A DNA stretch of 64,000 bases from Bacillota bacterium (lineage in GTDB: Bacteria > Bacillota > Clostridia > TANB77 > CAG-465). The stretch's first letter is position 1. Every line of letters starts with the position of its first letter. Below are positions 2,067 through 27,916 of the stretch, one piece after another. The notes under the pieces are model-generated. The model was not told the DNA's origin. It made no database searches and saw only the letters and a list, made by a program, of their open reading frames with translations. The stretch covers positions 42 through 64,041 of the forward strand of contig JAEWRE010000043.1 in the NCBI GenBank assembly GCA_023460235.1, in the 5' to 3' direction. The position numbers and the translations under genes are program-made.

Positions 2067-2564
2067 ATGAAAAAAACTAGTAATTTAATAATAAAAAAAG
2101 GTATAACACTTCTTGCACTTACAATTACAATTGCAGTTATCTTGATTCTTGCATCGACAATAGTCTTAAGTTCAAATGATATTATAGCTAAAACTAAAAA
2201 GTCAGAATTTGCAAAAGAAGTATATACAATACAGACTTTAGTTAAACAATATAAATTTAAAAATAATGTTTATCCGATTGATGGAAGCATTGAGATTACA
2301 CTAAGTGAACTTGATCAAAATTCAGTATCACAATTTTCTAATGAGCTGACATATTCTACTGGAAAAATAACGTTAGAATACATAGATTTATACGAAGCTG
2401 ATGTTGAAAATACAGTTAGAGGTAATAAAAAAAGTGGTAATCAAAAAGATGTATACCTGGTATCTAATGATACTGGTAGGGTATATTATTTAAATGGACA
2501 AAAAATATCCGGGACTGTATATTATACTCTTACAGATGAATTAAAAGAATTAATTGGAAAATAA
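2067..2564 (+). CDS. Prepilin-like protein (class III signal peptide MKKTSNLIIKKG|ITLLALTITIAVILILA), 165 aa; short paralog of the next two genes.
   Basis: RBS AGGGTG. N-terminal K-rich leader, Gly, then a ~20-aa hydrophobic helix. Shared motifs YKxKNxxYPI and xDTGRVYY with ORFs 2576 and 3642. Confidence 0.65.
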   Translation: MKKTSNLIIKKGITLLALTITIAVILILASTIVLSSNDIIAKTKKSEFAKEVYTIQTLVKQYKFKNNVYPIDGSIEITLSELDQNSVSQFSNELTYSTGKITLEYIDLYEADVENTVRGNKKSGNQKDVYLVSNDTGRVYYLNGQKISGTVYYTLTDELKELIGK

Positions 2565-2575
2565 ACGGAGGAAAT

Positions 2576-3628
2576 ATGAAAAAAGGAATTTCTTTGATAG
2601 CATTACTTACTACAGTTGCTATAATAATTATTCTTGTTACTGCTGTATCTGTTTCAGGTGCTAAAACATTAAACGACTCAAAGAAAATACAATTTGCTTC
2701 TGAGATTGCATATATTCAAGAATTAGTTAATTCATATAAAGCTAAAAATGGTAACTATCCTATAAGTGACGAATATACATTTTCAACTCTTAATGTTGAA
2801 CCAAGTGCATTAACTGAGCAATTTAAAGATGAAACACTAAATGAAAATAATATTAAACTATATAAGGTTAGTACAGAACTAATTGGTGCAAATGAACTAA
2901 AATATGGAAATTTGAAAATTCCTGAGGATGTATATCTATTATCTAAAGATACAGGAAGAGTGTACTATGCTAATAGCGTTTTAATAGATAAAAAATACTA
3001 TTATACATTAACTGATGATCTCAAGAAAATAATAAACTATACAGCAGTAAATGATGAAGTGAATGCTAATGCTGTGGTTTTTGAATATCCTAATACTGAA
3101 TGGACTAATGTTCCACTTAATTTAAATATAAAGATACCAGCTAGTTATATAAATGTTAATGTAAATATAGCTAAAGAAACCGGAAATGCTAGTGTTTCTA
3201 GTACTAAAACTGAAAACAATTATAATATATATGAGATTAGAAATATGCAGGAAAATTATATAGTTCATGTATCATATAAAGAAAATGATTCAGTACAAAC
3301 TGTTCAAGTAAAGACTTTTAGCGTGTCGAATTTTGATAAAATAGCACCTACATACAAAGTTAGTAATGTGAAAACTGTTATTGACCCATCAACTTCAAAA
3401 CAGTATAGATATATAGATATAAGTGAAATAAATGATAATTTAAGTGGAGTAAAAAGCATAAAGTATGAAAATAATAAAATAGAAGATGGAAATGTACTAG
3501 GCTATTTTACTGATAAAGGTATTGAAGTTAAGAATAATATAATAACAGTAAATGATGGAGTGTCTACAATAACATTTTTTATTGTAGATAAAGCAGGAAA
3601 TTATAAATATCAATATATTGAATTGTAA
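2576..3628 (+). CDS. Large (modular) prepilin-like protein, 350 aa: MKKG|ISLIALLTTVAIIIILV N-terminus, pilin-like core, ~200-aa C-terminal extension.
   Basis: RBS GGAGG. Paralogous to 2067 and 3642. Confidence 0.65.
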   Translation: MKKGISLIALLTTVAIIIILVTAVSVSGAKTLNDSKKIQFASEIAYIQELVNSYKAKNGNYPISDEYTFSTLNVEPSALTEQFKDETLNENNIKLYKVSTELIGANELKYGNLKIPEDVYLLSKDTGRVYYANSVLIDKKYYYTLTDDLKKIINYTAVNDEVNANAVVFEYPNTEWTNVPLNLNIKIPASYINVNVNIAKETGNASVSSTKTENNYNIYEIRNMQENYIVHVSYKENDSVQTVQVKTFSVSNFDKIAPTYKVSNVKTVIDPSTSKQYRYIDISEINDNLSGVKSIKYENNKIEDGNVLGYFTDKGIEVKNNIITVNDGVSTITFFIVDKAGNYKYQYIEL

Positions 3629-3641
3629 AGAGGTGAATTAA

Positions 3642-4697
3642 TTGAAAAAAGGTATAACATTAGTATCAGTATTAATAGCAGTAGCGGTAATTTTTATCCT
3701 TGTTACTTCAATAACAATATCTGGAATTTCAACAGTAAATAACTCAAAAAAAATGTCACTTTCATCTGAAATTGCAATGTTAAAAAATGCTTCCGATTCA
3801 TATAAAATAAAAAATGATGGAGAATATCCTATATCAGATGCTTTACTACTTGATGTGTCAAATGTTAGTAGTAATTCAATTAATCAATTCTCAGATGAAA
3901 CTATTGAAGATAATAAAATACTTCTTTATCAAATTGATTATAACAAAATAAGTGTTGGTGATTTGAAATATGGTAAATTAAAAAATGGTGATAATGATAC
4001 ATATGTGATTTCTAAAAAAACTGGTAAAGTGTATTATGCAAAGGGAATAGAAATTGGCGGTGTTACTTATTTTTATATTCAAAACAATTCTGAAGAATTA
4101 TTAAATAATGATAAGAACATTACCAATCCAGCTATTATATTTGAACAAAGTAATATTAAACCAACAAATGAAGATGTAACTATTAAGATAAAAGTGCCTG
4201 TTAATTATATTGTACAAGATGTAGCAGTAGAGAATAATATTATTACACAAAGCACCACTGAATCAACATATAACATATATGAATATACAGTTTCAGCAAA
4301 TTGTACAATTTCAGTAAAATATAAAATAACTTCAAATGATCAAGTTATTGAAACAAAGTATAATCTAACAAATATTGATAAAGTACCGCCAGTTTTGACG
4401 GTTCAAGATGCTTCACAAACATTAACACAAAATAGTAATGGAGAAAATATTGCATTTTTTACATTTACCCAGAAAATGGATGCTAATAGTGGATTAGAAG
4501 TGGTAAAATTTGTTAATTATAAAGTTGAAAAGGATATAGATAAATTTTTTGAAAACAATGGTACAAAAGTCACTGGTGATAAAATAAGTATAGGTAAGGG
4601 CGTTAGAGTAATAACTGTATATGCTAGAGATAAGGCAGGAAATGGGGCAGTTTTATATGTAAATGTTCTATCTTCAATTTATGATGCATTAATATAA
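3642..4697 (+). CDS. Large (modular) prepilin-like protein, 351 aa: MKKG|ITLVSVLIAVAVIFILV; paralog of 2576.
   Basis: TTG start with RBS AGAGGTG. Same architecture as 2576. Confidence 0.6.
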   Translation: MKKGITLVSVLIAVAVIFILVTSITISGISTVNNSKKMSLSSEIAMLKNASDSYKIKNDGEYPISDALLLDVSNVSSNSINQFSDETIEDNKILLYQIDYNKISVGDLKYGKLKNGDNDTYVISKKTGKVYYAKGIEIGGVTYFYIQNNSEELLNNDKNITNPAIIFEQSNIKPTNEDVTIKIKVPVNYIVQDVAVENNIITQSTTESTYNIYEYTVSANCTISVKYKITSNDQVIETKYNLTNIDKVPPVLTVQDASQTLTQNSNGENIAFFTFTQKMDANSGLEVVKFVNYKVEKDIDKFFENNGTKVTGDKISIGKGVRVITVYARDKAGNGAVLYVNVLSSIYDALI

Positions 4698-7238: not shown

Positions 7239-7757
7239 TTGATTATTATTAAAATTATATTAAGCTTTGGTATAGTTTTCTTATGCGGATATATAGGTGT
7301 ATTAAAATCAAAGAAATTAAAAGATAGAGAATATATATTAAGAGAGATGATTACATTTTTGAATTTAGTTGAAAATGAAATAAGATATATGATGAGTATA
7401 TTACCTAATGCATATGAATCATCAAGACAAAAATTAACAACTAGTTTAAAAAGTGCAATAGGGCAAATTGTTGTAGATATGCTAAGTTTTGAAAGTTATA
7501 CACTTATTGACCAAAGTATAGTTAAAAATATTTCTTCAATTGAAGAATTGTCTGAATATGATAAAAATGTATTTATATCAACACTTAAAAATCTTGGTAG
7601 GAGTGATGTAGATTCTCAAATTAATATAATTGAAAATGGTGTTAAAATACTTGAAAATCAAGTAAAAGAAGCAAACGAATTTAAACTTGTAAATTCAAAA
7701 TTGTATAGGACTATGGGTGTTATAACTGGTCTTATGGTTGTAATTATATTTATATAA
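7239..7757 (+). CDS. spoIIIAB: Stage III sporulation protein AB.
   Basis: Position and size (172 aa) in the operon; TTG start right after the AA stop, RBS GAGGTG. Confidence 0.7.
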   Translation: MIIIKIILSFGIVFLCGYIGVLKSKKLKDREYILREMITFLNLVENEIRYMMSILPNAYESSRQKLTTSLKSAIGQIVVDMLSFESYTLIDQSIVKNISSIEELSEYDKNVFISTLKNLGRSDVDSQINIIENGVKILENQVKEANEFKLVNSKLYRTMGVITGLMVVIIFI

Positions 7758-7769
7758 TGAGGTGTTAAT

Positions 7770-7964: not shown

Positions 7965-7972
7965 GTGATTCT

Positions 7973-8356: not shown

Positions 8357-8358
8357 AT

Positions 8359-9552: not shown

Positions 9553-9579
9553 TTTTACAAAAGAAAAGAGGAATGATCT

Positions 9580-10668: not shown

Positions 10669-10684
10669 TCAAGGAGGGATATTA

Positions 10685-11628: not shown

Positions 11629-13299
11629 ATGGCGAGTTGTCTTGGAATATATTCTAATCAAGATTTTGTAAAATATGCAAAAGTTTCAATAGATTCAAAT
11701 AAAGAATTCAAAGTAGAAGCATATGGAACAAGATTTGTTAGTAATAATGACAGAAAAATATTAATAAGCAATATAATTGATGAAACTAACTCAAAAGATT
11801 TGCCAATAATAATAAACCCTGAATTTGATAAATTCATAGATGTACAGGTTTACGAACAAGCAAAAAGTAAAGCATATATAGATGATGTAATTAGAATGGA
11901 ATTTGAAGCTTGGTGTGAAAAAAACAAAACCGAACCTTCAAAATTTTCATATGTTTATGCTTTATCTGACTATAAAACAACTGAAAATAAGTATAGTGGT
12001 ATAATAAATATAACTGAGGATACTGAAATACGTAATTTAAATGATGCTGTTGGACAAAACTTAACTTCAATAGTGCCATCTGAATTAACACTTCATAAAG
12101 TTGTGCCACAAGACTATGAAAATTATGTATTAGTAAATCTTGATGATAAACTTTCAATATCAACAATTATAAATAAAAAATTAGCTGAAATTAAGACTTA
12201 TGATGTGGGTATGGAGCAAATATTTTCTGATCTTAGATTAAGATTAGGTTCTTATCAAAAAGCATATGAGGCTTGTAAACAAGTCAACGTATATACTGAG
12301 GGTAAGTCTCAAAATGATCCAACTATAGAAGTATTAACTGAGCAAACTTTACAAGAAGTATTAAAGTATGTTTTAGTAATGGTAAATAAAAACAGAAAAG
12401 ATATAACTAAAGTACTTATAACTGGTAGTGGTACTGTATTTACAAATATAGATATACTATTTACTGAATTCTTAGACATGAAGAGTGAGATTTTAAAGCC
12501 TGAATTTTTAGTTAATTCTGGTAGTATTAAGAATCTTGCTGAAGTACTTGAAACTATACATGCTATTTCACTTGCTTGTAATTATTTAAAACCAGATCAT
12601 TCTCAAATAGACTATGTTGGTAAAAAAATGGCAAGTAAATTCTCATTAGAAACATTACTTTCAGTATTTAAAAAGAAAGATCCTAGTGAACTTCCACGTA
12701 AAGTTAAATTTGATAAGCCAAAGGCAGATAATAACAAATCAAATGAGGGTGCTCAAAATAAAAATGTTATTTACGCTTTTGATTTTGAAAAGTTTAGCAA
12801 ATATGCTATAAATGGTGTAATAGTTATAGCTGTTATATTAGTAACTTATATTGTATTTAACATATTCTATTCAAATAATATAAACAAGATGCTTACTGCT
12901 ATAGCGGATCAAGATACAAAAGTATCTTCTAAAATATCTGAAGTTAACAATGATATTAGTTATATAAATTCTAATGTATCACAATATAAGACTATAAACA
13001 CTCAAGTATCTGATTTAGTAACTCAGATTGAAACTGGTTCATTAGGTAAAATAACTACATATAATGTTGCTAGTTTTTTACAACAAGTTATAAAAATAAT
13101 ACCAAAGACAATACAACTTAAATCAATAAGTTCAGATGATAATAAAAATGTGAAAATTTCAGCACAATCATCAAGCTATGCAGACCTTGGTTACTTTGTA
13201 GCACAATTAAAGCTAGAAGGAGTATTAAATTCTGTAAAAATAAATAGCATACAAAATGGTGAGACAATTTTAGTAGAGATTGGTGGTGAGTTACCGTAA
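11629..13299 (+). CDS. pilMN: Fused PilM-PilN-like T4P assembly protein: actin-like ATPase domain (~330 aa) plus C-terminal TM and periplasmic coiled-coil PilN-like part.
   Basis: RBS AAGGGAG. N-terminus 'CLGIYSNQDFVKYA' resembles the PilM 'GxDIGSxxIK' motif. TM helix at aa ~395-420. Heads a T4P gene block. Confidence 0.6.
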   Translation: MASCLGIYSNQDFVKYAKVSIDSNKEFKVEAYGTRFVSNNDRKILISNIIDETNSKDLPIIINPEFDKFIDVQVYEQAKSKAYIDDVIRMEFEAWCEKNKTEPSKFSYVYALSDYKTTENKYSGIINITEDTEIRNLNDAVGQNLTSIVPSELTLHKVVPQDYENYVLVNLDDKLSISTIINKKLAEIKTYDVGMEQIFSDLRLRLGSYQKAYEACKQVNVYTEGKSQNDPTIEVLTEQTLQEVLKYVLVMVNKNRKDITKVLITGSGTVFTNIDILFTEFLDMKSEILKPEFLVNSGSIKNLAEVLETIHAISLACNYLKPDHSQIDYVGKKMASKFSLETLLSVFKKKDPSELPRKVKFDKPKADNNKSNEGAQNKNVIYAFDFEKFSKYAINGVIVIAVILVTYIVFNIFYSNNINKMLTAIADQDTKVSSKISEVNNDISYINSNVSQYKTINTQVSDLVTQIETGSLGKITTYNVASFLQQVIKIIPKTIQLKSISSDDNKNVKISAQSSSYADLGYFVAQLKLEGVLNSVKINSIQNGETILVEIGGELP

Positions 13300-14099
13300 T
13301 GCAAAGAGATTTAGTTAAATTTATAGTTAGTACAGTTATATTAGTAGCTTTAATTGCGGTAATAGTATTTTCATTAATAAGTGGTATTGATTTAGGTTTT
13401 GCAAAAATATCATCTTTTAGTGGTTTACAACAACAACATGATAATATTTCTACAAAACAAACATCATTATCTCAAAAGGAAACTTCATATAAAACAACGC
13501 TTCAAAATCTTGAAAATGCAAAAACAGAGTATTCTAAAGAAAAAGCGAAGTATGAAGCAATAAGTAATGAAACTATAAACATGATAAAAGAAGCCACAAC
13601 TGAAGAAAAATATACTTTAGAGTATATGTGGATAAGACTTGGAAATTATGCTAAAATACATAACTTATCTATACTTTTAGTTGAACCAGGTGGAAGTTCT
13701 ACAAGTACGACAACAGGCGGTGCAGGCACACCTACAGGTACAACAGGTACTGGAACAAGCACAGGCACAGGCACTGGAACACCTACTGGAACTAATACTT
13801 CTACAGGAACTGGTACTAATGCTACTACTGGAACAAGCACAGGTACAGGTACACCAACTGGTACTACTGGTACTACTGGTACTAATACAACAGGCACACC
13901 ATCTGGAAACACAACAACTGCTTCTGATGTCTTAAGAATTGAAATTACAGGTAGTTATCTAAATGTTTCTGATTTCATATTTGATGTAGAAAATGATAAA
14001 GAACTTAGATTTAAACTTGACAATATAACAATGGAACTTGTTTCTGGTACAACAATAAAAACAACATTTAATGTAAAAAATATGGTTATTAACAAATAA
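13299..14099 (+). CDS. pilO: PilO-like T4P assembly membrane protein (N-terminal TM, coiled coil) with an internal ~80-aa Thr/Gly-rich low-complexity tract.
   Basis: Position after pilMN; topology; TG-rich tract at 13681-13920. Confidence 0.5.
   Translation: MQRDLVKFIVSTVILVALIAVIVFSLISGIDLGFAKISSFSGLQQQHDNISTKQTSLSQKETSYKTTLQNLENAKTEYSKEKAKYEAISNETINMIKEATTEEKYTLEYMWIRLGNYAKIHNLSILLVEPGGSSTSTTTGGAGTPTGTTGTGTSTGTGTGTPTGTNTSTGTGTNATTGTSTGTGTPTGTTGTTGTNTTGTPSGNTTTASDVLRIEITGSYLNVSDFIFDVENDKELRFKLDNITMELVSGTTIKTTFNVKNMVINK
13681..13920 (+). repeat. Low-complexity coding repeat (GTxGTx encoded by acwggwac-type DNA).
   Basis: Seen directly. It also creates long spurious ORFs on both strands (13646-13912 minus, 13681-13935 plus). 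Confidence 0.8.
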
Positions 14100-14116: not shown

Positions 14117-14521
14117 ATGAAAAAATCATATATTATAACCTTTAGTATATCTGTTATAGTAATGTTTTCGGTAGCAATTATATTTCTTATGTTAATGTTA
14201 CCACAAAACGTCAATATAGTAGATTCTGAAGCAACAAAATATCAACAAATAGCAAAGACAGATTATACGTTTAATAAAACTAAAGATGTAAGCCAAGAAA
14301 GTTTACAAAAAGAATATTCAATTACATCTTCACAAATTGAGTCATTTGCTAAGAAAAATCAATATAAAGCAGGAAACTCTGATCCTTTCACAGCAGCTGG
14401 TACTAATACCAATAATGGAAACGCTAACAATGGTAATACTAATAATGGTGGTACTACACCTGATGAGGAAACAACAAATAGTAATGGTGGAACACCAAAC
14501 CCACCATCAGCGAATAAATAA
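14117..14521 (+). CDS. Small membrane-anchored T4P-associated protein (N-terminal TM, N/G/T-rich C-terminus); a PilP-like role is possible.
   Basis: RBS AAAGGAG; context between pilO and the pilins. Confidence 0.4.
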   Translation: MKKSYIITFSISVIVMFSVAIIFLMLMLPQNVNIVDSEATKYQQIAKTDYTFNKTKDVSQESLQKEYSITSSQIESFAKKNQYKAGNSDPFTAAGTNTNNGNANNGNTNNGGTTPDEETTNSNGGTPNPPSANK

Positions 14522-14535: not shown

Positions 14536-15018
14536 TTGAAAATTTCAAAAGATAAATTCGTAATAATCATATTACTTATAATAGTTATAATACTTTCAGT
14601 AATTTTAGTTATAAAATCACGAAATACATTTTCTGGAAGTACTACAAAAACATTTTTAAGTGATATTACAAATATACAAAGTAAATTATCTTATTATATA
14701 GGTTCAACATATTCTGAAACTTTTGGTGTTTATACTAATGTGGAAATCATAACAGGAACTAGTGAAAAAACAAGTTCTAAATCTAATTTAGAAAACATCA
14801 AACCAATTGTAGATACTAGTTCTAAAAAAGAAAAAAATAGTAAAGTATATTATAAATTAAATTCAGATGTTGTTAAACAAATATTAAAGATAAATTTGCC
14901 TACATATGATGGGATTGAATGGTATATTCAAGATGGACAGTATTTAAAAGTAAACTTTGAAAAACAACCATCTTGGTGGAATGACAGCCTAAACACATAT
15001 ATGGTAGGCAACAACTAA
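14536..15018 (+). CDS. Membrane-anchored protein (N-terminal TM MKISKDKFVIIILLIIVIILSVILVI with no Gly cleavage site); a minor pilin-like or assembly protein is possible.
   Basis: TTG start with RBS AAGGAG; 160 aa. Confidence 0.4.
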   Translation: MKISKDKFVIIILLIIVIILSVILVIKSRNTFSGSTTKTFLSDITNIQSKLSYYIGSTYSETFGVYTNVEIITGTSEKTSSKSNLENIKPIVDTSSKKEKNSKVYYKLNSDVVKQILKINLPTYDGIEWYIQDGQYLKVNFEKQPSWWNDSLNTYMVGNN

Positions 15019-15083: not shown

Positions 15084-15623
15084 ATGAAAGCAAAAAAAGG
15101 TATTTCTTTAATCGTATTAGTTATAACTATAATTGTTATAATTATCCTTGCTGGTGCAGTTATTTTGAACATGACTAAAAATAATCCAATGGATTCAGCA
15201 AAAGTAGCAAAATTGGTTCAACAAAGGGATTCATTAGAATCAGCTACATTGCTTTATGCTCAACAAATAATGGCAGCAACTCAAGGTGAATATGGTTTAT
15301 CAGACATTTTACAAGGCAATGCAGTAAAATCAGCAGCAGGAGTAACACCAGTAGTTAAATATACTGGTATAACAACTGGAACTGCACTTACAAATGTTAC
15401 TGGTGCATCTACAACAGCTACATTTAAAGTTGCTGATTCTACTGTAACAAAAGACACTATAGATTTTGCTTTACCAGAATCAGGTGTTTCTGGTGCATAT
15501 TGGGCTGTTGATACAGCAAGTGGAAAATTCTATTTAGTAGTTCCAGCAGCTACAACAAATCCAACATGGTTAGATCTTACAAATCAATCATTAGCAGCAT
15601 TTGTTGTTAAATTAGCATCTTAA
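15084..15623 (+). CDS. pilA: Probable major pilin (prepilin MKAKKG|ISLIVLVITIIVIIILAG; 179 aa, Ala/Thr/Gly-rich, no Cys).
   Basis: Strong RBS TAAGGAGG. Higher-expression-like codon usage and locally higher GC than neighbours. Located before the pilD-like and pilB genes. Confidence 0.6.
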   Translation: MKAKKGISLIVLVITIIVIIILAGAVILNMTKNNPMDSAKVAKLVQQRDSLESATLLYAQQIMAATQGEYGLSDILQGNAVKSAAGVTPVVKYTGITTGTALTNVTGASTTATFKVADSTVTKDTIDFALPESGVSGAYWAVDTASGKFYLVVPAATTNPTWLDLTNQSLAAFVVKLAS

Positions 15624-15665: not shown

Positions 15666-15694
15666 GGACATATATGCAACATGTGTATATGTCC
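15666..15694 (+). other. Stem-loop GGACATATA-11nt-TATATGTCC just downstream of the major pilin gene; possible partial terminator.
   Basis: Perfect 9-bp inverted repeat; no clean T-run. Confidence 0.4.
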
Positions 15695-15769: not shown

Positions 15770-16588
15770 ATGACACTTTTTCTAAATATATTTGTTATAT
15801 TTTGTATATTTGTAATTGGAAGTTTATTTGGTAGCTTTTATTCGCTTGCTACATATAGGATTCCTCAAAAACAAGATATTGTTGCAACTAGATCATATTG
15901 TCCAAATTGTAAACACAGATTAGAATTCTTTGATTTAATACCTGTACTTAGCTTCATTTTATGTGGTGGTAAGTGCAGATATTGTCATGATAAAATAAGT
16001 CCAAGATATTTTTTACTTGAAGTAGGACATGGATTGTTATTCGTGGCTATCTATTTGATTTTAACTGTATTCTTTGGAATTTCTATTGAAGCTCTTGTAA
16101 TATTTATGTGTATAGCAATTATGTATTCAGTTATATTTGTAATAATTGGATCAAATATAATGGCAAAAAAAATGAATATTTATAAAAAGAGTGAAAAAGC
16201 TAATTCTAAAAAGGGTGTATTTATATCTGAGTTAGTTATTGCATCAATATTATTTACAATACTTCTTACAACTTCTTTTATTGTGGCAAGAAATTATACA
16301 AATAAAGCAAATAACAGCATAATAAGAGCTAATGCAGTATCTGTTGGAATTAAAAATGCAGAAATTGCACTTAGTACTAAATATGATAGTCTTACTACAT
16401 TTACAAATGTTGAAACTGTGGAAAACATACAGTATACAACGACTGTATCTGTGAATAAATATTCTGATGAAAATTCTTTAAAAGAAGATTTTGTAAAGAA
16501 AATAACTGTTAGCGTAAAATATAATATATCTGGCGAAGAATATGAATTTAAATTTGATACTTTGAAAGGTAGGTCTGCTGTAACATGA
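15770..16588 (+). CDS. PilD N-terminal (Zn-ribbon/TM 'DiS_P_DiS'-like) domain fused in-frame to a pilin-like module (KKG|VFISELVIASILF, which does have Glu+5). No peptidase A24 catalytic domain is present.
   Basis: RBS GGGGGAG. 'GSLFGSFYSLATYRIP' and 'CPNCKH...CGGKCRYC' align to the PilD N-terminus. There are no membrane Asp residues and no GGGD-type motif afterwards. The junction lies across an A8 tract (16165-16172), with an in-frame ATG at 16172. Confidence 0.55.
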   Translation: MTLFLNIFVIFCIFVIGSLFGSFYSLATYRIPQKQDIVATRSYCPNCKHRLEFFDLIPVLSFILCGGKCRYCHDKISPRYFLLEVGHGLLFVAIYLILTVFFGISIEALVIFMCIAIMYSVIFVIIGSNIMAKKMNIYKKSEKANSKKGVFISELVIASILFTILLTTSFIVARNYTNKANNSIIRANAVSVGIKNAEIALSTKYDSLTTFTNVETVENIQYTTTVSVNKYSDENSLKEDFVKKITVSVKYNISGEEYEFKFDTLKGRSAVT

Positions 16589-17064
16589 AAAAAAATAAAT
16601 CTGGTATGACTATGATTTCAATAGTTTTATATGTAACATTATTTTTTACACTTTCTGTTTTTGTTATTGCAATGAGTACAAATATGAATACAAATGCCTT
16701 ATCTGAAAAAGGTGATATAATAATTAATGAAGATTTACAAAAAATTCAGTATAATTTAGTGAAAAGTTGTAAAGAAAGTGATAAAATAGATATAATAGAA
16801 AATAAGATAGTATTTTCGAATAATGATGAATACTACTTTAATACTGAAAAAAAGATATTGTATAAAAATGATACAGTTATCTCAAAGAATGTACAAGAAT
16901 TTTCTATTGTGAATTTAACAGATTTATCTGGAATATCATCTACTCAAATAACAAATATTGATACTAAAATTCAAAATTTAACTGTTAAATTTGATATAAA
17001 AAAATATAACAAGGAAAAAAGTTCAACAATATTTTTATCATTAGGAGCTGGTTTATATGAATAA
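16585..17064 (+). CDS. Prepilin-like (pseudopilin) protein, 159 aa (MKKNKSG|MTMISIVLYVTLFFTLSVFVIA).
   Basis: Class III-like N-terminus; ATG overlaps the upstream stop. Confidence 0.5.
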   Translation: MKKNKSGMTMISIVLYVTLFFTLSVFVIAMSTNMNTNALSEKGDIIINEDLQKIQYNLVKSCKESDKIDIIENKIVFSNNDEYYFNTEKKILYKNDTVISKNVQEFSIVNLTDLSGISSTQITNIDTKIQNLTVKFDIKKYNKEKSSTIFLSLGAGLYE

Positions 17065-17272
17065 GAAAAAACTAAGAGGTTCTGGAATATTAGTTGTTAT
17101 ACTATCTTCAGTAGCATTTTATATTTATGCAATGTCAACATTTAGTGAACAAGAATATTTTGGAATATTACAAGATAGATATGAAAAAGATATAGTTAGA
17201 GAATATGAAAAAAACGTAAACAATATAGATGATTTCTATGATAATGTCGTAAATATATATAACAATATGTAA
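17057..17272 (+). CDS. Small prepilin-like protein, 71 aa (MNKKKLRGSG|ILVVILSSVAFYIYA).
   Basis: Class III-like N-terminus; overlaps the upstream gene by 8 nt. Confidence 0.4.
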   Translation: MNKKKLRGSGILVVILSSVAFYIYAMSTFSEQEYFGILQDRYEKDIVREYEKNVNNIDDFYDNVVNIYNNM

Positions 17273-17289: not shown

Positions 17290-18927
17290 ATGTTTGAAAA
17301 TATTAAATCGAAAAAAAATCCAATAGGTGTTGAGTTTATAAAAAGGGGACTACTTACAGATAGTCAAGTAGACAGAGTACTACAATATCAAAAAGAGCAT
17401 AAGGAATTAAAGTTTGCTGAAATAGTTGATATACTAGATATGTGTGATAAATCACAATTGCTTGAGACTTTAGCTGATAAAGTTGGTATAACTCCTGTAA
17501 CACTAGATGGAGATATAACTGTAAATCCAGTAAAATACATCCCAAGAGATATGATTATAAATTATAAGGTTATGCCTTTTGATATTGATGGAAATACTTT
17601 AAAAGTAGCGTTTTCTGATCCACAAGATGTTGATAAAGTAAAAGAAATAGAGCTTTTACTTATGAATGCCGGATACAATATGGAAGTATATATAACTTTA
17701 TATACAGCTATTATGAAGCAAATAGAGCAAATAAGAACAGTTGATAGTAAGTTTGTTGATAAAGAAGAAAAAGATGTTACAAAACTAATAGATAATATAA
17801 TTATGACTGCTATACAAAAAAGAGCCAGTGATATTCATATTGAACCTATGGAAGATAAAGTAAGAATCAGATTTAGAATTGATGGTGAATTAATTACTAT
17901 AACTGAGCTTCCAAAAAATAGACAAGATATCGTAACAGGAAGACTTAAATCGATTTCAAATATGTATCAAGAAATTACTTATGATCAAGATGGAAGTATA
18001 AACACTTACGAAAATTTCAGTATCCGTGTATCAAGTCAAAAAAATGTTAACGGAGAAAAATTTGTACTTAGATTATTAAGAAAAAATACTGAAGCAAAAA
18101 ATTTATTTGAACTTGGATTTGAAAATGATGATGAACTAGTTGCAAAAGCTTTTGATAAAAGAAATAGTATAGTTCTTGTATGTGCACCAACTGGAGAAGG
18201 TAAAACTACAACTTTATATAGTGTAATTGAATATCTTGATAAGCCTCAAATTAATATAATATCAATTGAAAACCCAGTTGAAAGAAGATTAAAAGGTGTA
18301 AATCAGGTAGAAATAGGACCAAATATTAGTTTTGACTCTGCACTTAGAACAGTTCTAAGACAAGATCCAGATATTGTTCTTGTTGGAGAAATAAGAGATG
18401 TTGAGACTGCTAAAATTGCTATAGAAGCAGGACAAACAGGACATTTAGTTTTAAGTACAATACATACAATTGATTCAATTGAGGCTATTACAAGAATAAG
18501 AAAAATGGGTATATCAGATTACGATGTATCAGCTACACTTGTAACATCAATATCACAAAGACTTGTTAGAAAGCTATGTAATAAGTGTAAAAAACCACAT
18601 GAAATTACAGAAGATGAAAAAAGGTATATTGAAAGAGTTACAAAAATAACTGGACAAGAATTTGATTTAGAAAGTGCACAAATGTATGAACCTGTTGGTT
18701 GTAAATACTGCAATGATATCGGGTATTATGAAAGAATTGCATTATTTGAAGTGTTATGCGTAGATGATTACTTAAAAGATATGATTTCAGACGGAAAATC
18801 TACAATTGATATTCGTAAATATGCAATTGAAAATACAGGATATAGACCACTAATTGCAGATGGTGTAAAAAAAGTATTAGAAGGCATTACAACAATTGAT
18901 GAGCTAAAGAGAAAAATAACATTATAA
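17290..18927 (+). CDS. pilB: T4P/T2SS assembly ATPase of the PilB/GspE family (N-terminal GSPII_E_N-like domain, Walker A 'APTGEGKTTTLY', tetracysteine CxxC...CxxC).
   Basis: RBS GAGGAGG; motifs read directly; 545 aa. Confidence 0.85.
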   Translation: MFENIKSKKNPIGVEFIKRGLLTDSQVDRVLQYQKEHKELKFAEIVDILDMCDKSQLLETLADKVGITPVTLDGDITVNPVKYIPRDMIINYKVMPFDIDGNTLKVAFSDPQDVDKVKEIELLLMNAGYNMEVYITLYTAIMKQIEQIRTVDSKFVDKEEKDVTKLIDNIIMTAIQKRASDIHIEPMEDKVRIRFRIDGELITITELPKNRQDIVTGRLKSISNMYQEITYDQDGSINTYENFSIRVSSQKNVNGEKFVLRLLRKNTEAKNLFELGFENDDELVAKAFDKRNSIVLVCAPTGEGKTTTLYSVIEYLDKPQINIISIENPVERRLKGVNQVEIGPNISFDSALRTVLRQDPDIVLVGEIRDVETAKIAIEAGQTGHLVLSTIHTIDSIEAITRIRKMGISDYDVSATLVTSISQRLVRKLCNKCKKPHEITEDEKRYIERVTKITGQEFDLESAQMYEPVGCKYCNDIGYYERIALFEVLCVDDYLKDMISDGKSTIDIRKYAIENTGYRPLIADGVKKVLEGITTIDELKRKITL

Positions 18928-18943: not shown

Positions 18944-20041
18944 ATGGATTTAATATATTTAATAATAGATAAGGCAATTAGTTTAGATGCAACAGATATT
19001 CACTTAGCACCAGGCCTTGTTCCAGTTTATAGAATAAGTAGAAAATTATTTTTTGATGAAACTAAACTTCCACTTGATGAAGTTATATTAAATCAATTTT
19101 TAGACTATTTTTATGAAAAGAATAAAGGGTTAAAAGAAAAATTTGAATTAAAGAAGCAAGCTGACTTTTCTTATTCATATAAAGAAACAAGATTTAGAAT
19201 AAATGTATCAATAACAAAAGGAATACCAACATTTTCTATTAGAATAATACCAAATGGAGAGATAAAAGCTGATTCTCTAGGACTAAAAGATATTATTAGA
19301 AAAGTTCAAAGAGTTCATTCTGGGCTTGTATTAATTACAGGTAAGGTAAACTCAGGTAAATCAACTACAATGAATGCATTTTTACAAGAAGTAAATAGAA
19401 CAGAAAATAAAAAAATAGTAACTTTAGAAGATCCAATTGAGTATGAACATACTTCTCAAAAATCTATTGTAATTCAAAAAGAAATTGGAGAACAATCAGA
19501 TGTTATAAATTTTAATGCAGGACTTGTAAACTTATTAAGAGAAGATGCTGATATTACAGTTCTTGGAGAAATAAGAGACAGAAAAACAATGGATGTTGCA
19601 ATAGATCTTGCTGAATCTGGCGGACTTGTTATTGGAACATTACATACACGTTCTTGTGGTGAAACAATAGAAAGAATAATAAATATGTATGATCCAGGTG
19701 AACAAATGGCAATAAAAAATTCAATATCTTCAGTGCTTAAAATAGTTGTATCTCAAAAACTACTTGTTAGTACTAAAAATACACTAATACTTGTTCCTGA
19801 AATAATGGTTGTAAATAATACAATTGAAGCTCAAATAAGACAAGAAAAGTTTAGTGTATCTGATATAGAAGATTCAATTCATACACAAAAGGAAAATGGA
19901 TGTGTAAGTTATGAAAGCTCATTTGCTGATATGTATGCAAAAGGTCTACTTGATATGGCAACAGTTGTGGAAAATGTTGATCCTAACAGACTTAGTATAA
20001 TAAAAAATCTAATTGTAAGTTACGGTGGAGAAGTAACTTAA
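18944..20041 (+). CDS. pilT: Twitching/retraction ATPase of the PilT family (Walker A 'GKVNSGKSTT'; 365 aa).
   Basis: RBS AAGGGAG; size and motifs. Confidence 0.75.
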   Translation: MDLIYLIIDKAISLDATDIHLAPGLVPVYRISRKLFFDETKLPLDEVILNQFLDYFYEKNKGLKEKFELKKQADFSYSYKETRFRINVSITKGIPTFSIRIIPNGEIKADSLGLKDIIRKVQRVHSGLVLITGKVNSGKSTTMNAFLQEVNRTENKKIVTLEDPIEYEHTSQKSIVIQKEIGEQSDVINFNAGLVNLLREDADITVLGEIRDRKTMDVAIDLAESGGLVIGTLHTRSCGETIERIINMYDPGEQMAIKNSISSVLKIVVSQKLLVSTKNTLILVPEIMVVNNTIEAQIRQEKFSVSDIEDSIHTQKENGCVSYESSFADMYAKGLLDMATVVENVDPNRLSIIKNLIVSYGGEVT

Positions 20042-20073
20042 ACTAAATATTTTTACTTTTTAGGAGGTGTACA

Positions 20074-21411
20074 ATGCCAAATTACAAATATAGGGTCATT
20101 TTTGAAGACGGAAGAATTGGAAGAGGAAAAATAATTGCATCAAGTAGAATAAGTGCTATAGAAAAACTGAAAATGGAAAAAAATCAGCCTATTATGATAA
20201 AGAGAATGGGCGGAGAAAAGACTAAATATAATACAAGAGTTGACTATAGTAAATTAAAGAAACCTACCGTTGAAAGAAGAAAAAAGAAGAATAGACCAAA
20301 AATCAATATAATGAAATTAACTCTTGATGACCTAAAAAAATTGGACTTGCACCCTTTCGCAAGAGTAAAAACAAAAGATATTGTAACATTTGTAAACAAT
20401 ATATATATATTAAAAAAAGCAAAATTTAATAACGTTCAAGCATTAGAAGCTGTTTATCAAGGAACTGAAAATCCTGCATTTAAAGATATAGTTGAAGATT
20501 TATTAATTGGAGTTCAATCTGGTGAAAAATTAAACACTATAATGGAAGGCTATCCAAAAGTTTTTCCACCGATGTTTGTAAACTTTGTTAGGGTTGGAGA
20601 AGAGTCTGGTAATTTAGATACTGCTTTACTATATGCAAGAGATTATGTTGAATCATCTCAAAAATTAAATAAAAGAATAAAAGCAGCAATAATTCCTAGG
20701 GTATTACAATTTGTTGGTATAATGATTGCAATGTTTGTTGCGCTTATAATAGGTGTACCAATACTAAAAGATGTATATACGATGTTTGGTTCTGAGCAAG
20801 AAATTCCAAAAGCGACTATGATTGGATTTTCTATTGCAGAATGGTTAATAGCAAATTGGTATGTACCAACCATTATAATTGCATTGCTTGTTGGAGCATT
20901 TATATTTTATATTCGTACTCCAAGAGGCAGATATAATTGGGACAAATTCTTAGTCACAGGACCTGTAGTTGGTAAATTAATAGACAATATAATAGTTAGT
21001 AACTTCTTTCAAGCGATGTTACTAAACTTAAAAAATGGTATGAGAATTCAAGAAAGTCTTGAAGTATCTAAAAATGTAACTAACAATTATTATTTTCTAT
21101 CTGCAGTAGAAGCAGGTAAGGTAAACATACAATCAGGTGAATCGTGGATAGAACCATTTGATGAAAAGAATCTTTTTAAACCTATGGTATCAGAAATGTT
21201 AAACATAGGTATGAAAACTGAACTTTCTGAAATGATGGATAAAGTAAATGAATATATTAAGACAGAAATTGATGAGTCTCTTGCAAAATTTGTAAAAGTA
21301 CTACCAGATATTACTTATTTATTTGTTGGTATTGCAATGATAGCATTAGTTATTACAGTTGTAGTTCCACTTACAAATGTATATATGGGAGGATTTATTT
21401 CACTACAATAA
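20074..21411 (+). CDS. pilC: T4P platform protein of the PilC/GspF family (cytoplasmic N-terminal domains plus 3 TM segments).
   Basis: RBS AGGAGGTG; 445 aa; GspF-like topology. Confidence 0.75.
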   Translation: MPNYKYRVIFEDGRIGRGKIIASSRISAIEKLKMEKNQPIMIKRMGGEKTKYNTRVDYSKLKKPTVERRKKKNRPKINIMKLTLDDLKKLDLHPFARVKTKDIVTFVNNIYILKKAKFNNVQALEAVYQGTENPAFKDIVEDLLIGVQSGEKLNTIMEGYPKVFPPMFVNFVRVGEESGNLDTALLYARDYVESSQKLNKRIKAAIIPRVLQFVGIMIAMFVALIIGVPILKDVYTMFGSEQEIPKATMIGFSIAEWLIANWYVPTIIIALLVGAFIFYIRTPRGRYNWDKFLVTGPVVGKLIDNIIVSNFFQAMLLNLKNGMRIQESLEVSKNVTNNYYFLSAVEAGKVNIQSGESWIEPFDEKNLFKPMVSEMLNIGMKTELSEMMDKVNEYIKTEIDESLAKFVKVLPDITYLFVGIAMIALVITVVVPLTNVYMGGFISLQ

Positions 21412-24968: not shown

Positions 24969-24973
24969 TGGGA

Positions 24974-25006
24974 AAGCCCTAGAATGTGTGAATTCTAGGG
25001 CTTTTT
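24974..25006 (+). terminator. Rho-independent terminator (AAGCCCTAGAAT...ATTCTAGGGCTT, then TTT).
   Basis: 12-bp GC-containing stem plus T-run just after the secA stop. Confidence 0.75.
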
Positions 25007-25183
25007 CAGACCGCAATACAAAAAAATAGTTTGTTAATATGAAGAAATTATTACACTTAATAACAAATATTTATATATTTTAACAAAATAATATATAAAG
25101 TATCAAAAATGTATAAAAAAGTATTGAAAAATGTTTTTGTTGATGTTAATCTATAATTATATAACTATGAGGTGTTTTTTTGT

Positions 25184-27916
25184 ATGAACAATATTAATAA
25201 AAAGATTGTGGCTCAACATAATATTACTTTAAAAAGTGGAATTTCACTTATAACATTGATAATCACTATAATTGTGATTATTATTCTTACATCTGTTATC
25301 TTAATATCCTTAAATCAAAGTAGCATCATGGCAAATGCAAAAGATGCCGTAATAGAAAATAATTTTTCGACAATACAGGAAGAGATAGAATATTATAAGT
25401 TAAATAAATATTATTCTGATCATACTACACTTGATCTATATCCACTGGAAAAAGATGAGGATGGAAATTATATCACTATGGATAATTTACCAGAAGAAAC
25501 TAAAAATAATTTACCAATGGAATTAAAGATGAATTTATATGATACTGAAAAGCATGAATTAGAGACATATAATAATCTTCCAGATATTAGTTATTTAGAC
25601 TACAAGAAATTTTATAAAATAGATACAAGTCTTTTAACTACAGCAGGAGCTTATGGTCAAGATTTATACATATATATATATGATTTAAAATATGTAGTAT
25701 TTAATATAAGCGGTATAAAATACAAAGGTAATACTGAATACAGTATTATACCTCTTGGAGGAGGAGGTAGTCCAGAATATATAGCACTTACAAATAATAC
25801 ATTTAGACTTGATACTGATGGTAATTTAAAAGTTCTTGGACAAATAAATTCAATAACTGGTGAAACCTCAGATGAATACAAAAAGTATAGTGGAATTAGA
25901 GAGTTTACTATACCTTCAGTGATTGAGAATCCTAGTGAAGTAAAAAAAGTATATTTTTCTTTAGGTACAGCATATGTAATCGATAAAGATGATAATTTAT
26001 GGGCATGGGGAAATAATCCATATAATAAGCTTGGGCTTGGAAACTCATTTACAATAACTGTCCCAAATAAGATAAATGAAAATATAAAAGTGAACAATGA
26101 AAGTATAAAAGTAAAAAATGTTTGGGCTGGTGTATCAAACACATGGATAGTGGATACAGAAAATAGGGTATGGGCTTGTGGAAGTAATACGAGCGGATCA
26201 TTTGGAATAGGAAATACTAATTACTATTCTGGATATATAAGAGTGGACAACTTAGATGGATCTAAAGTAAAAGAAATTATGCCTAATTTAAGTGATTCAA
26301 GGTATACTTTTGTGTTATATGATGATGGACGAGTTTTTGCATCTGGTTCTAATACATATGGAATTTTTGGTAAAAATAATACTACAAGTATTAAAACTTT
26401 TGAAGAATTAACAAGCTTCTATGGTGCAAAGAAAATTTTAGCAGGAGGAAATAGGACTACATTTATACTTAAAGATAATGGAGAACTTTATGGAGTTGGA
26501 AGTAATGTATTTGGAGGTCTAGGACTGCCAATAAGTGATAATACACTATATACAATTCCAGTAAAAATTGCATATAATGTTTCAGATATAAGCTATGTTG
26601 AATACTGGAGAGGAAGTGTGCGATATAAAACTGTAGATGGTGATATATATCAATCAGGTGTATTAAAATATGATAATTTAGGAGCACCACTATATGATCA
26701 ATACTTTAGAATGATAAATAATATTAATGATGTAGATTTATCTTTTGATTCAAATGAACTACTAATATCTAAAGGAAAGTTATATACAGTATTATATAAT
26801 TCTCAAGATGATCAATTGACAGCTACGGAGTATTCTACTTCATATTCAAATGTATCAAGTACGGAATCCTTTTATGGGATGAAGATTTTTAAGGCATCTG
26901 GAAAGCTGTATTTGGATTCATATCCAGATATAACTGCTGCAGGAAGTAGAGTAAGATTAACTCTAAAGAATGTATTTACAGGAGCTAAATTTGTACAAGG
27001 CGCAACAAATAATATAAGTATTGTAGATAAAAATTCTAATATATGGGAGAGTTTAACAAATAAAAATACTCAACTTTCGAATGTTAAGAAAATAATTTCT
27101 TCTAATACAGCCAAGTTTGCTCTTTTAAAAAATGGTGAACTCTATGCAAAAGGCGCTTCAACTACAGGTGGATGGGGAGATGCACTCGTAAAAACTAGTT
27201 ATACATTAATTACTAAAGATGGAACAACTCCTTTTAGTGTAAAAGATGTATATACATCAGTATATGGTAACAGTGCTATTTTCCTTACAAATGATAATGA
27301 ATTATATTGGTTTGGACATGATGCACATATATATCTACCTAATAAAGAAAATGGAGATATATTATATAATGACGGAAATTATGTTACAAAATATCCACAT
27401 AAAATAAATACTTTAGGATTAGATACTAATGTATTAACTAATATTGCTGATATAGTATATGATGTTAACTGGTCAGATTTTTATTCAAGAATTACATATG
27501 TATTAACAAATAGTGGAGAATTATATGTAACTGGAGATAGTTCCAAAACTACAGGACTTGGTAGTACTAGTACTAAATTTACCAAGATAACAGCATTTGG
27601 AAATGCAAAAGTAAAATCAATAAAATCATATCAAGGATGTACAATCGCATTGCTAGAAGATGGTAAAGTGTATGCCTGGGGATACAATACATATGGACAA
27701 TTTGGAGGTGGATATGTAATAGGAAATACCTATACAACACCACAAAGATTAAATATAAGCACTAACATAATAAAAATAACTTTAGGTGATGGATTTGCAC
27801 TTTTCTTAGCAAATGATGGAACTGTATATGGCAGTGGAAGAAATGAATATGGGCAACTTGGAAATGGTACTAATGTATCTATTGAAGGTTTTACGGAATG
27901 TAAGGAACTTGAATAA
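25184..27916 (+). CDS. Giant modular prepilin-like protein: class III-like signal (…NITLKSG|ISLITLIITIIVIIILTS) followed by a ~880-aa domain with at least 6 RCC1-like repeats (WGxNxxGQLGxG).
   Basis: ATG at 25184 with RBS GAGGTG 9 nt upstream. RCC1 signature repeated (AWGNNPYNKLGLGN, WACGSNTSGSFGIGN, YAWGYNTYGQFGGG, YGSGRNEYGQLGNG and others). Confidence 0.65.
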   Translation: MNNINKKIVAQHNITLKSGISLITLIITIIVIIILTSVILISLNQSSIMANAKDAVIENNFSTIQEEIEYYKLNKYYSDHTTLDLYPLEKDEDGNYITMDNLPEETKNNLPMELKMNLYDTEKHELETYNNLPDISYLDYKKFYKIDTSLLTTAGAYGQDLYIYIYDLKYVVFNISGIKYKGNTEYSIIPLGGGGSPEYIALTNNTFRLDTDGNLKVLGQINSITGETSDEYKKYSGIREFTIPSVIENPSEVKKVYFSLGTAYVIDKDDNLWAWGNNPYNKLGLGNSFTITVPNKINENIKVNNESIKVKNVWAGVSNTWIVDTENRVWACGSNTSGSFGIGNTNYYSGYIRVDNLDGSKVKEIMPNLSDSRYTFVLYDDGRVFASGSNTYGIFGKNNTTSIKTFEELTSFYGAKKILAGGNRTTFILKDNGELYGVGSNVFGGLGLPISDNTLYTIPVKIAYNVSDISYVEYWRGSVRYKTVDGDIYQSGVLKYDNLGAPLYDQYFRMINNINDVDLSFDSNELLISKGKLYTVLYNSQDDQLTATEYSTSYSNVSSTESFYGMKIFKASGKLYLDSYPDITAAGSRVRLTLKNVFTGAKFVQGATNNISIVDKNSNIWESLTNKNTQLSNVKKIISSNTAKFALLKNGELYAKGASTTGGWGDALVKTSYTLITKDGTTPFSVKDVYTSVYGNSAIFLTNDNELYWFGHDAHIYLPNKENGDILYNDGNYVTKYPHKINTLGLDTNVLTNIADIVYDVNWSDFYSRITYVLTNSGELYVTGDSSKTTGLGSTSTKFTKITAFGNAKVKSIKSYQGCTIALLEDGKVYAWGYNTYGQFGGGYVIGNTYTTPQRLNISTNIIKITLGDGFALFLANDGTVYGSGRNEYGQLGNGTNVSIEGFTECKELE

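Follow-up and report, generated by a model that had tools for sequence, protein, structure and literature searches.

The window, a stretch of 64,000 nucleotides from a Bacillota bacterium of the order TANB77 (contig JAEWRE010000043.1), contains a locus that, as known from its genes, is a bacterial T4aP-type pilus machine. All features described here lie on the forward strand. The extension ATPase PilB (17290..18927; PF00437 at 9e-97, plus MshEN), a 365-aa PilT-type retraction ATPase (18944..20041; PF00437 at 2.5e-34) and the platform protein PilC (20074..21411; two PF00482 matches) are recognised by Pfam, as is the PilN region (PF05137) at the C terminus of a 556-aa PilM-PilN fusion protein (11629..13299), which is present in 75 of 80 related loci. 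A PilO-like protein (13299..14099), which contains a low-complexity insert rich in Thr and Gly, has no Pfam match and is assigned by its position and by synteny (59 loci). It is followed within the operon by a conserved bitopic protein (14117..14521) present in 46 related loci. Extension ATPase, platform, PilM/N/O and PilT thus lie within one locus, and the synteny of this machinery is kept in 75 to 80 of the 80 related loci, which were drawn from 80 GTDB species-representative genomes. These loci apparently belong to the TANB77 order, and the T4aP-type locus appears typical of this order of uncultured gut Clostridia.

In a class III signal peptide, a short hydrophilic leader has Gly as its last residue, and a stretch of about 21 hydrophobic residues comes next. 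Seven free-standing ORFs of the locus carry such a signal, as does a module fused within ORF 15770-16588, and the signals are conserved in orthologues. For six of the seven, the cleavage motifs are as first read, with neither Phe at +1 nor Glu at +5 (the bar marks the cleavage site). These are an accessory prepilin of 165 aa (2067..2564; MKKTSNLIIKKG|ITLLA), which has a weak N-terminal match to GspG (TIGR01710) and a PF07963 score under threshold; an accessory modular prepilin of 350 aa with an additional C-terminal module (2576..3628; MKKG|ISLIA); an accessory modular prepilin of 351 aa with a TTG start (3642..4697; (M)KKG|ITLVS; TIGR01710 N-terminal match, 1.4e-5); the 179-aa product of 15084..15623 (MKAKKG|ISLIV), with Val at +5; a 159-aa minor prepilin present in 50 loci (16585..17064; MKKNKSG|MTMIS); and a large modular prepilin (25184..27916; KSG|ISLIT) that continues into an RCC1-like beta-propeller (PF25390, PF13540 and PF00415 matches). 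In all six, a short basic leader ending in Gly is followed by I/M-[ST]-[LM], a +5 position that can be summarised as hydrophobic and, after the cleavage motif, about 21 uncharged, mostly hydrophobic residues. The 15084 product is the candidate major pilin by its position, ribosome-binding site and family size. Past its gene lies a stable 13-bp hairpin (15666..15694; fold z = -3.7, with none of 200 shuffles folding equally well), a possible attenuator or terminator.

The seventh ORF encodes a small pilin-like protein of 71 aa (17057..17272), present in 46 loci. The site SG|ILVVI, proposed in the initial annotation, is rejected here since the orthologues point to RG|SGILV; the seven that were read share [KR]G|S[GA]xLxV. 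Ser then occupies +1, and the corrected protein still lacks Phe1 and Glu5. An eighth class III signal peptide had been ascribed to the bitopic pilin-like protein at 14536..15018. This assignment did not hold, as the Gly before the hydrophobic, transmembrane stretch is absent in 30 of 30 orthologues. The seven free-standing prepilins have A, A, S, V, S, V or T at +5, never an acidic residue; among six orthologues read of the 16585 minor prepilin, five have Ser there and one has Thr. The proposal that the whole pilin set lacks Glu+5 is therefore correct for the free-standing prepilins and fails for a ninth pilin module, the one in ORF 15770-16588, described below.

The Glu5-less pattern does not arise by chance, because the 15084 motif is G|ISLIV or G|ISLFV in all 120 homologues among the matches listed and the prepilin motifs reappear at orthologous positions of related loci. 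No locus pilin passes the PF07963 (N_methyl) cutoff (best score 12.9 bits against 21.2), and none of the 120 listed 15084 homologues has a precomputed PF07963 match. Profile comparison of the 15084 family gave marginal matches in the correct register to S. sanguinis PilE1 (8pfb; E = 6e-4 over 116 residues) and to Geobacter PilA-N (0.018), in the latter of which Gly-1, Ile1 and Val5 fall on Gly-1, Phe1 and Glu5. At the level of sequence, the homology between the locus pilins and type IV pilins is genuine. A fair reading of the motifs is that the major pilin would have no salt bridge from Glu5 to the N terminus, that is, a divergent assembly chemistry. Such assembly would need compensating changes, because engineered Glu5 mutants of classical pilins are unable to homopolymerise (PMC4471445).

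Divergent processing machinery, suggested initially from the motifs, is borne out more strongly by the PilD homologue of the locus, which lacks the aspartyl-protease domain. PilD (MEROPS A24A) comprises an A24_N domain with a CxxC...CxxC zinc site and a Peptidase_A24 domain in which two Asp residues are catalytic (...D... and GxGDxK). ORF 15770-16588 begins with a PilD-derived part (residues 1-149; 15770..16216) that matches PF06750 at 1.8e-29, whereas PF01478/IPR000045 gives no match in the ORF at E <= 1. Its AF2 topology consists of TM1, a four-Cys zinc ribbon, TM2, TM3 and a 15-residue basic linker ending in K-K-G149, after which the pilin starts. The ribbon corresponds to A24_N/IPR010627, the N-terminal methylase/zinc-ribbon domain (residues 15-96). 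All of 98 relatives, canonical enzymes included, keep the zinc-site residues C44, C47, C69 and C72, and D55, E84 and a GGK motif ahead of the third Cys are invariant or nearly so. No catalytic Asp motif occurs in the fusion ORF, and residues 97-149 contain no Asp at all.

The fused pilin module (residues 150-272; 16217..16588) starts V-F-I-S-E and is the only locus pilin with Glu at +5 (E154). The junction reads SKKG|VFISELV, and K147, G149, V150 and E154 within it do not vary among the 26 family members aligned. In sequence, the module matches neither solved pilins nor PF07963. Its AF2 model, however, contains a 53-residue alpha1 helix and a four-strand sheet, and the best Foldseek matches of this predicted fold are the GspI proteins XcpV and EpsI (probability 1.0; target TM-score 0.63-0.70). 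In locus L047 the two parts are naturally split, with the stop codon of the first overlapping the start of MNNNKKLSKNSG|VFISE, and the linker is therefore equivalent to a leader. Fusion of a PilD remnant to the sole pilin of its locus that has Glu5 is apparently an arrangement undescribed so far.

The fusion is kept in 49 of the 80 related loci, so that, with the window included, 50 loci are fused, 27 carry a dead domain, 4 are short and none has the catalytic motif. In the 27 loci of the second class (group 2), a homologous A24 domain that is catalytically dead is followed by a separate pilin gene. The group-2 proteins align with canonical PilD over their full length (hhalign probability 100, 250 columns) and yet give no PF01478 match even at E <= 1; in the sequences inspected the second catalytic Asp is replaced and the first column holds D, E, F or C. 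The separate pilin carries Asp5 (read in 5 loci) behind a leader of 13-14 residues. As the fused-module profile matches the ORF directly downstream of the group-2 PilD-like gene (E 1e-15 to 2e-3), the fused module is homologous to this separate pilin.

Loss of the PilD catalytic domain could mean that the locus is in decay and has ceased to make a filament, its odd motifs reflecting relaxed selection. This would also fit L084, a syntenic locus of a sister lineage in which PilD is frameshifted near its C terminus in the assembly, after the second catalytic motif, and PilB is split into three ORFs. We regard decay as very improbable, however, given that the machinery ORFs of the window are all intact with strong Pfam scores, that related loci from 80 species share their gene order and pilin motifs, that the two PilD-like families are large (854 and 3161 database matches) and that the pilin N termini are invariant rather than drifting.

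The same remnant might instead persist as a pure pseudoenzyme, a non-methylating scaffold or leader that places the Glu5 minor pilin at PilC/PilMN while the peptidase is encoded elsewhere. Glu5 is reported to matter for T4P methylation (PMC4471445) and most substrates here lack it, and the domain persists not only in the fusion but also next to a dead protease domain, as dead pseudoenzymes often do. Yet the conservation of the zinc Cys residues, D55, E84 and the GGK motif exceeds what a leader would need, and we consider this reading unlikely, if worth keeping in mind. We favor the view that the A24_N domain may still methylate, or otherwise handle, pilin N termini.

Searches for an intact enzyme extended beyond the locus. 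A GxGDxK-type motif was absent from six frames of the window, from 10 kb past it and from 1.45 Mb of related loci; neither about 74 kb of the contig nor about 20 kb surrounding each of the 80 loci yielded an A24 peptidase, and the catalytic motif is missing from all 81 PilD-like ORFs, counting the window together with the 80 loci. In a positive control made up of the 98 nearest full-length A24_N representatives, 40 match PF01478 and 27 carry the motif. Nor does the window contain a FlaK/PibD-type enzyme or archaeal ATPase or platform genes.

These results raise the prospect that a whole order of gut Clostridia has retractile T4P but no A24 prepilin peptidase in its genomes. The pilins would then be uncleaved or cut by a non-A24 enzyme, the intact fusion of remnant and Glu5 pilin would stay tethered in the membrane and prime or anchor the pilus from its base, and Glu5 loss would follow because no free N-terminal amine arises in the membrane. 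Leaders of merely 4-7 residues in several pilins, the coincidence of Glu5 loss and protease loss in one lineage, the presence in the operon of an uncleavable pilin-like anchor already (ORF 14536) and the TANB77 Tad-like cluster, which as published also has no listed peptidase, would all suit such a scheme. On the other hand, the invariant Gly-1 and basic -2/-3 residues of the pilins and the fusion are hard to explain without cleavage. Some leaders are long (19 residues in the RCC1 pilin, 13-14 in the group-2 Asp5 pilins), and Lys-rich leaders would have to cross the membrane and end up inside the filament core. Moreover, the DNA searched is a small part of each genome, and L084, with Glu5-less pilins (G|VSLITLVITIV) beside a PilD that keeps GID and GYGDIK, indicates that Glu5-less pilins are older than protease loss. 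Its frameshifted PilD and split PilB make L084 an imperfect sole example of this pairing. Overall, we judge it distinctly unlikely that the pilins escape A24 cleavage.

The initial annotation had also raised a different peptidase specificity, which is neither required nor supported. Gly-1, the residue critical for prepilin processing, is invariant in the locus pilins, Glu5 is dispensable for processing (PMC4471445), and the L084 PilD has both catalytic motifs; a new cleavage specificity is thus not needed. The most likely model, which we would give about an even chance, combines a T4aP-type motor of the ordinary kind with pilins that lack Glu5 and are cleaved by a peptidase encoded elsewhere. 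The canonical G|F-T-L-I-E would have drifted to [KR]-G|[IVLM]-[ST]-[LM]-[IV]-[VAST] and, because of this drift away from Glu5, the filament core would be held by hydrophobic alpha1 packing alone, with no Glu5 salt bridge, as in many archaeal pilins. An acidic +5 has been retained by one pilin only, a small minor pilin resembling GspI whose usual place is after pilD. In PilD itself, the aspartyl-protease half may first have lost its catalytic residues, the state of the group-2 relatives, and may then have been deleted, the methylase/zinc-ribbon half being fused in frame to the GspI-like pilin such that the entire PilD remnant now occupies the place of a pilin leader peptide. Cleavage would persist after the invariant Gly, at G149|V150 included, through an A24 peptidase elsewhere in the genome, for which a TadV/ComC-type enzyme or a second PilD is a candidate, and the released Glu5 pilin may help to prime assembly.

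The locus resembles the T4aP loci of C. difficile, C. perfringens and S. sanguinis in having PilB, PilT, PilC and PilM/N/O and, as in clostridial and streptococcal T4aP, places the major pilin beside pilD and minor pilins after it and includes modular pilins with an extra domain. In ordinary T4aP loci (here L089 and L091/L092) the F/E5 pilins are PF07963-positive, and PilD combines PF06750 with PF01478. In contrast, the pilins of this locus fall below the PF07963 threshold, with I, M or S at +1 and V, A, S or T at +5, and its PilD homologue lacks the protease domain. The fused module is like GspI/XcpV/EpsI (PilV class) in its small alpha1 plus four-strand predicted fold, its Glu5 and its place in the first minor-pilin slot after pilD, but differs in that its "leader" is a 149-residue three-TM domain and in having no sequence match to solved pilins. 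Tad/Flp systems (T4cP) use a CpaF/TadA ATPase, a TadB/TadC platform and Flp-type pilins with Glu5-Tyr6. A Tad/Flp identity, the published TANB77 pilus included, is rejected for this locus, which has a PilB-type ATPase with MshEN, a single two-domain PilC and PilT. A cluster for a Tad-like pilus does occur in TANB77 genomes (Kim et al. 2024, PMC11680825), comprising CpaB, TadZ, CpaE, CpaF, a TadB/C fusion and proteins 932-938, with no peptidase listed. It apparently comes from the same order and also has unannotated pilin-like proteins, but is a different gene cluster; a PilB/PilT/PilC locus, a Glu5-less motif and a PilD remnant are not described for TANB77 in that study. The class III signal peptides recall archaeal pilins and archaellins, and the hydrophobic stretch of archaeal type IV pilins often lacks Glu5 (PMC4471445). 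Here, though, Gly-1 is strict, and the motor (PilB with MshEN, PilT, PilC, PilMN) and A24_N are bacterial; an archaeal-type T4P is therefore also rejected. Finally, in TadV/FppA of T4cP systems, as in this locus, the two domains of PilD have become uncoupled naturally. TadV keeps the protease without the methylase domain (PMC10191384), whereas here the opposite half is retained, the methylase domain persisting with the protease dead or deleted.

The motor of the window locus is T4aP-type. A co-directional pilus operon (11629-21411) encodes a PilM-PilN fusion with PF05137 at its C terminus, a PilO-like protein, two small bitopic proteins, a 179-aa pilin, a "PilD" ORF, two small pilins, PilB (PF00437 at 9e-97, plus MshEN), a PilT-type ATPase and PilC, which has two T2SSF domains. 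Three further pilin genes lie at 2067-4697, and a 911-aa pilin with an RCC1-like propeller is encoded at 25184-27916. The window is low-GC DNA (G+C 23-31%), and secA and the spoIIIA operon are interleaved with its pilus genes. The accessory pilins are separated from the pilus operon by a family-2 glycosyltransferase gene and the complete spoIIIAA-AH sporulation operon (4858-6120 and 6327-11257), and spoIIIA is kept immediately 5' of pilMN in 13-19 related loci. As an adhesin-type module of a modular pilin, the β-propeller, ~800 residues joined to a class III leader pilin, is unusual; a similar gene occurs within 10 kb in only 3 of the 80 related loci. Directly upstream of the accessory pilin genes, a 502-aa ORF (451-1959) consists of three tandem repeats of ~165 aa each; it gave no significant Pfam match and, because it lies near the contig end, could represent the C-terminal portion of a longer surface protein. 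A low-complexity insert of ~75 residues, rich in Thr/Gly/Ser/Pro (GTGTSTGTGTGTPTG..., window 13700-13930), is present in the PilO-like protein, and the C-terminal tail of ORF 14117 is Asn/Gly/Thr-rich; either could serve for glycosylation or as a spacer. At 53924-63806 lies a cluster for conjugative type IV secretion, which contains TrbC/VirB2-like pilin genes at 53924, 54494 and 55401, the last with only a faint match to TrbC, a VirB4-like ATPase at 57745-59736 (DUF87 and TraG P-loop) and a number of membrane proteins that carry no annotation. Just past the window end is a gene for a 1034-aa NlpC/P60 protein, and 25 kb from the cluster the opposite strand encodes a TraG/VirD4-type coupling protein (28006-30516, minus). 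A promoter scan of the window found 47 sites against 47.1 expected and is uninformative in AT-rich DNA.

The initial annotation had described eight prepilins here, all lacking Phe+1 and Glu+5. Six of the eight N termini (ORFs 2067, 2576, 3642, 15084, 16585 and 25184) are exactly as it read them, and a scanner requiring a leader with Lys or Arg, then Gly, then 21 uncharged residues with at least 12 strongly hydrophobic finds these six, with few off-target matches elsewhere in the 64 kb. Among the matches listed for ORF 15084, 120 of 120 homologues start G|ISLIV or G|ISLFV (the bar marking predicted cleavage after Gly-1), and the same motifs occur at orthologous positions in the related loci. 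The 15084-family profile matches the solved S. sanguinis pilin PilE1 (E = 6e-4) and, set against Geobacter PilA-N, places Gly-1, Ile1 and Val5 opposite Gly-1, Phe1 and Glu5. Based on this conservation and these alignments, the sites are real; other starts or registers exposing Phe1 or Glu5 are ruled out, the sites by orthologue conservation and the register by the Geobacter alignment. The remaining two entries changed. ORF 17057 is indeed prepilin-like, but the site shared by the seven orthologues read is [KR]G|S[GA]xLxV, while ORF 14536 lacks the Gly in 30 of 30 orthologues and is thus an uncleavable bitopic pilin-like protein rather than a prepilin. The absence of Glu+5 likewise stands for the free-standing pilins but not for a pilin that had been missed, fused behind a peptidase remnant. 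No window pilin reaches the PF07963 threshold, GspG N-terminal matches to these pilins are weak, and Foldseek of the ORF 15084 pilin against the PDB returned nothing significant; source names for these pilins are nonfunctional, with NCBI giving "hypothetical proteins" where they are named. We take ORF 15084 as the major pilin because of its AGGAGG site, its family size and the stable hairpin after the gene (z = -3.7). The semi-tryptic peptide for its predicted mature N terminus is ISLIVLVITIIVIIILAGAVILNMTK, and the leader-containing form has MKAKKG.

The missed pilin lies in ORF 15770-16588, at the usual place of PilD. This ORF matches only A24_N (PF06750, residues 15-96, 1.8e-29), with no match to Peptidase_A24, and proceeds from A24_N through two more transmembrane helices and a short Lys-rich linker to ...SKKG|VFISELVIASILF.... 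In the AF2 model (mean pLDDT 79.7) the predicted order is TM1, a zinc-ribbon region, TM2, TM3, the linker and a 53-residue helix on a four-stranded sheet. Among PDB structures, Foldseek matches the pilin module best to XcpV and EpsI, minor pseudopilins of the GspI class (probability 1.0, target-normalised TM-score 0.63-0.70), with modest E-values of 0.03-0.5; sequence-level searches of the PDB and Pfam gave no match to the module. Thus, the locus does hold one Glu5 pilin, behind the remnant of the peptidase gene. Foldseek of the fusion model (ma5bc5f6e8722) also gave SAM-dependent methyltransferases (1y8c, 5bsz and 6uk5, probability 0.95-0.97), matched over only ~62 columns and at very low TM-scores. 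The ORF is not a normal PilD turned pseudogene by a frameshift, as there is no room for an A24 domain and no remnant of one in any frame, and as the full-length fusion is kept in 49 other loci and, in an exhaustive HMMER search, in ~17 clusters at 50% identity. A separate internal start for the pilin module was also rejected, there being no ribosome-binding site upstream of M130 or M134. In one fusion-group locus, L047, the PilD-like part and the pilin are overlapping separate genes, the pilin beginning MNNNKKLSKNSG|VFISE, and the stop/start overlap that splits them falls in the same linker region. In the window this linker holds an eight-A run (GCAAAAAAAATG, 16152-16170), at which slippage could switch between fused and split forms.

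Judged from sequence, the fusion architecture is a conserved family, apparently order-wide, rather than a chance event. Database searches with the 272-aa protein gave 854 matches, of which the best 120 are 255-294 aa long, span 93-100% of the query and have PF06750 alone, and K147, G149, V150, E154 and four Cys are invariant in 26 aligned members. A scan of GTDB species representatives gave 246 relatives, and 80 of their loci were fetched; these come from MAGs labelled Clostridia, including Clostridium sp. CAG:465, CAG:921, CAG:508, CAG:452 and CAG:567. CAG-508 is a major family within the order TANB77 (PMC11680825), and we infer the TANB77 placement of the window from such neighbours (CAG-508 and similar). 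Among the 81 PilD-like ORFs of these loci and the window, 50 are fusions, 27 continue from A24_N into a long polytopic C terminus (group-2) and 4 are short; GxGDxK occurs in none of the 81. We regard a locus in decay as highly improbable. The group-2 C terminus, which hhalign pairs with canonical PilD across 250 columns (probability 100), is a genuine A24 domain that is predicted to be dead: the first catalytic Asp column holds D, E, F or C, the second holds other residues in the sequences inspected, and GxGDxK is replaced by K[ND]SYxxx. Group-2 proteins give no PF01478 match even at E <= 1, and the closest 120 of their 3161 database matches are annotated PF06750 only. In five group-2 loci, for which prepilin N termini were read, the gene directly downstream encodes a separate Asp+5 pilin (G|FTMQD, G|FTGID or G|ITGAD), and the fused-module profile matches the downstream ORF across group-2 loci (E from 1e-15 to 2e-3). 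In the simplest history, the catalytic residues of PilD would have been lost, the dead protease domain would then have been deleted, and this deletion would have brought the methylase half into one gene with the GspI-like pilin that lay downstream.

Although named "prepilin peptidase" in annotation, the PilD remnant cannot be one. The A24 catalytic motif is absent from all frames of the window and from 1.45 Mb around the 80 related loci, and no A24 peptidase is present in the 10 kb past the window end (the other end is ~160 bp from the contig end). These tests are able to detect real peptidases, since, among the 98 nearest A24_N representatives of full length, 40 match PF01478 and 27 have GxGDxK. 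The polytopic ORFs 43516, 45906, 51167 and 4858 were rejected as hidden peptidases, Pfam giving other families or none and never Peptidase_A24. Two low-GC-like canonical PilDs, P0467 and P0507, were rejected as TANB77 peptidases, as they belong to ordinary T4P loci of other Firmicutes.

PilD combines a methylase domain (IPR010627) with a protease domain (IPR000045) and has two universally conserved Asp; Gly-1 is absolutely critical for prepilin processing, while Glu5 is always dispensable for it (PMC4471445, PMC10191384). Because Gly-1 is invariant, the different peptidase specificity suggested by the initial annotation is not needed. The nearest PilDs with catalytic motifs (P0390, P0419 and P0424) have in common a lineage-specific GSFF[TS]LAxxRIP and are each followed by a G|YSLIE pilin. 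Locus L084 (GCA_002308995.1, DBWQ01000023.1, 6001-9700), among the closest relatives still with PilD catalytic motifs, has in addition a minor pilin reading G|VTLTT and two pilins reading G|VSLITLVITIV, and therefore the Glu5-less motif appears older than the protease loss, with the caveat that the L084 PilD has a +1/-1 frameshift after the second motif, GYGDIK, and that PilB there is broken into three ORFs, either by assembly error or by independent decay of that locus.

We give an even chance to a joint mechanism in which a peptidase encoded elsewhere would cut after Gly, G149|V150 of the fusion included, A24_N would still act on pilin N termini, and the filament core would pack without the Glu5 salt bridge. 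Continued action of A24_N is suggested by its zinc site, invariant in canonical and noncanonical members, and by the GGK motif, D55 and E84, which are invariant or nearly so. Alongside these residues, a remnant that is purely a scaffolding pseudoenzyme and no more seems unlikely. A system that truly has no peptidase and uses a tethered primer would suit the empty searches; set against the invariant G149, it seems quite unlikely. The locus bears on two questions. Bacterial type IV pilins are described as nearly always having Glu5, and mutants engineered to lose it are unable to homopolymerise (PMC4471445); a large natural bacterial major-pilin family with Val/Ala+5 and a standard PilB/PilT/PilC motor provides a ready test of the role of Glu5. 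What pilin N-methylation and the N-terminal domain of PilD do is still called "a mystery" (PMC10191384), and A24_N parted from its protease by nature, whether attached to a dead one or fused to a pilin, offers a clean separation-of-function system. In addition, T4P surveys counting by PF07963 or "prepilin peptidase" signatures mis-score an abundant gut clade. If the clade is truly TANB77, it is clinically interesting, and another pilus of these bacteria has been associated with the response to immunotherapy (PMC11680825).

In the literature searched on PF06750/IPR010627, no methylase-only PilD or PilD-pilin fusion is described, and among the papers listed by full-text searches there is no description of Clostridia pilins without Glu5 or of monoderm prepilin peptidases without catalytic aspartates. 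Searches on TANB77 pili and CAG-508 type IV pili gave only one relevant paper, besides unrelated work; its "TANB77 pilin" was rejected as the same system because it belongs to a Tad-like cluster, for which no peptidase is listed either (PMC11680825). Ordinary clostridial loci (L089 and L091/L092) differ in having PF07963-positive pilins beside a PilD with both PF06750 and PF01478. TadV, which according to reviews lacks the methylase domain, is the opposite case, as here the methylase half is kept and the protease is dead or absent. Many archaeal pilins likewise pack their core without a Glu5 salt bridge, as is proposed for the filament here.
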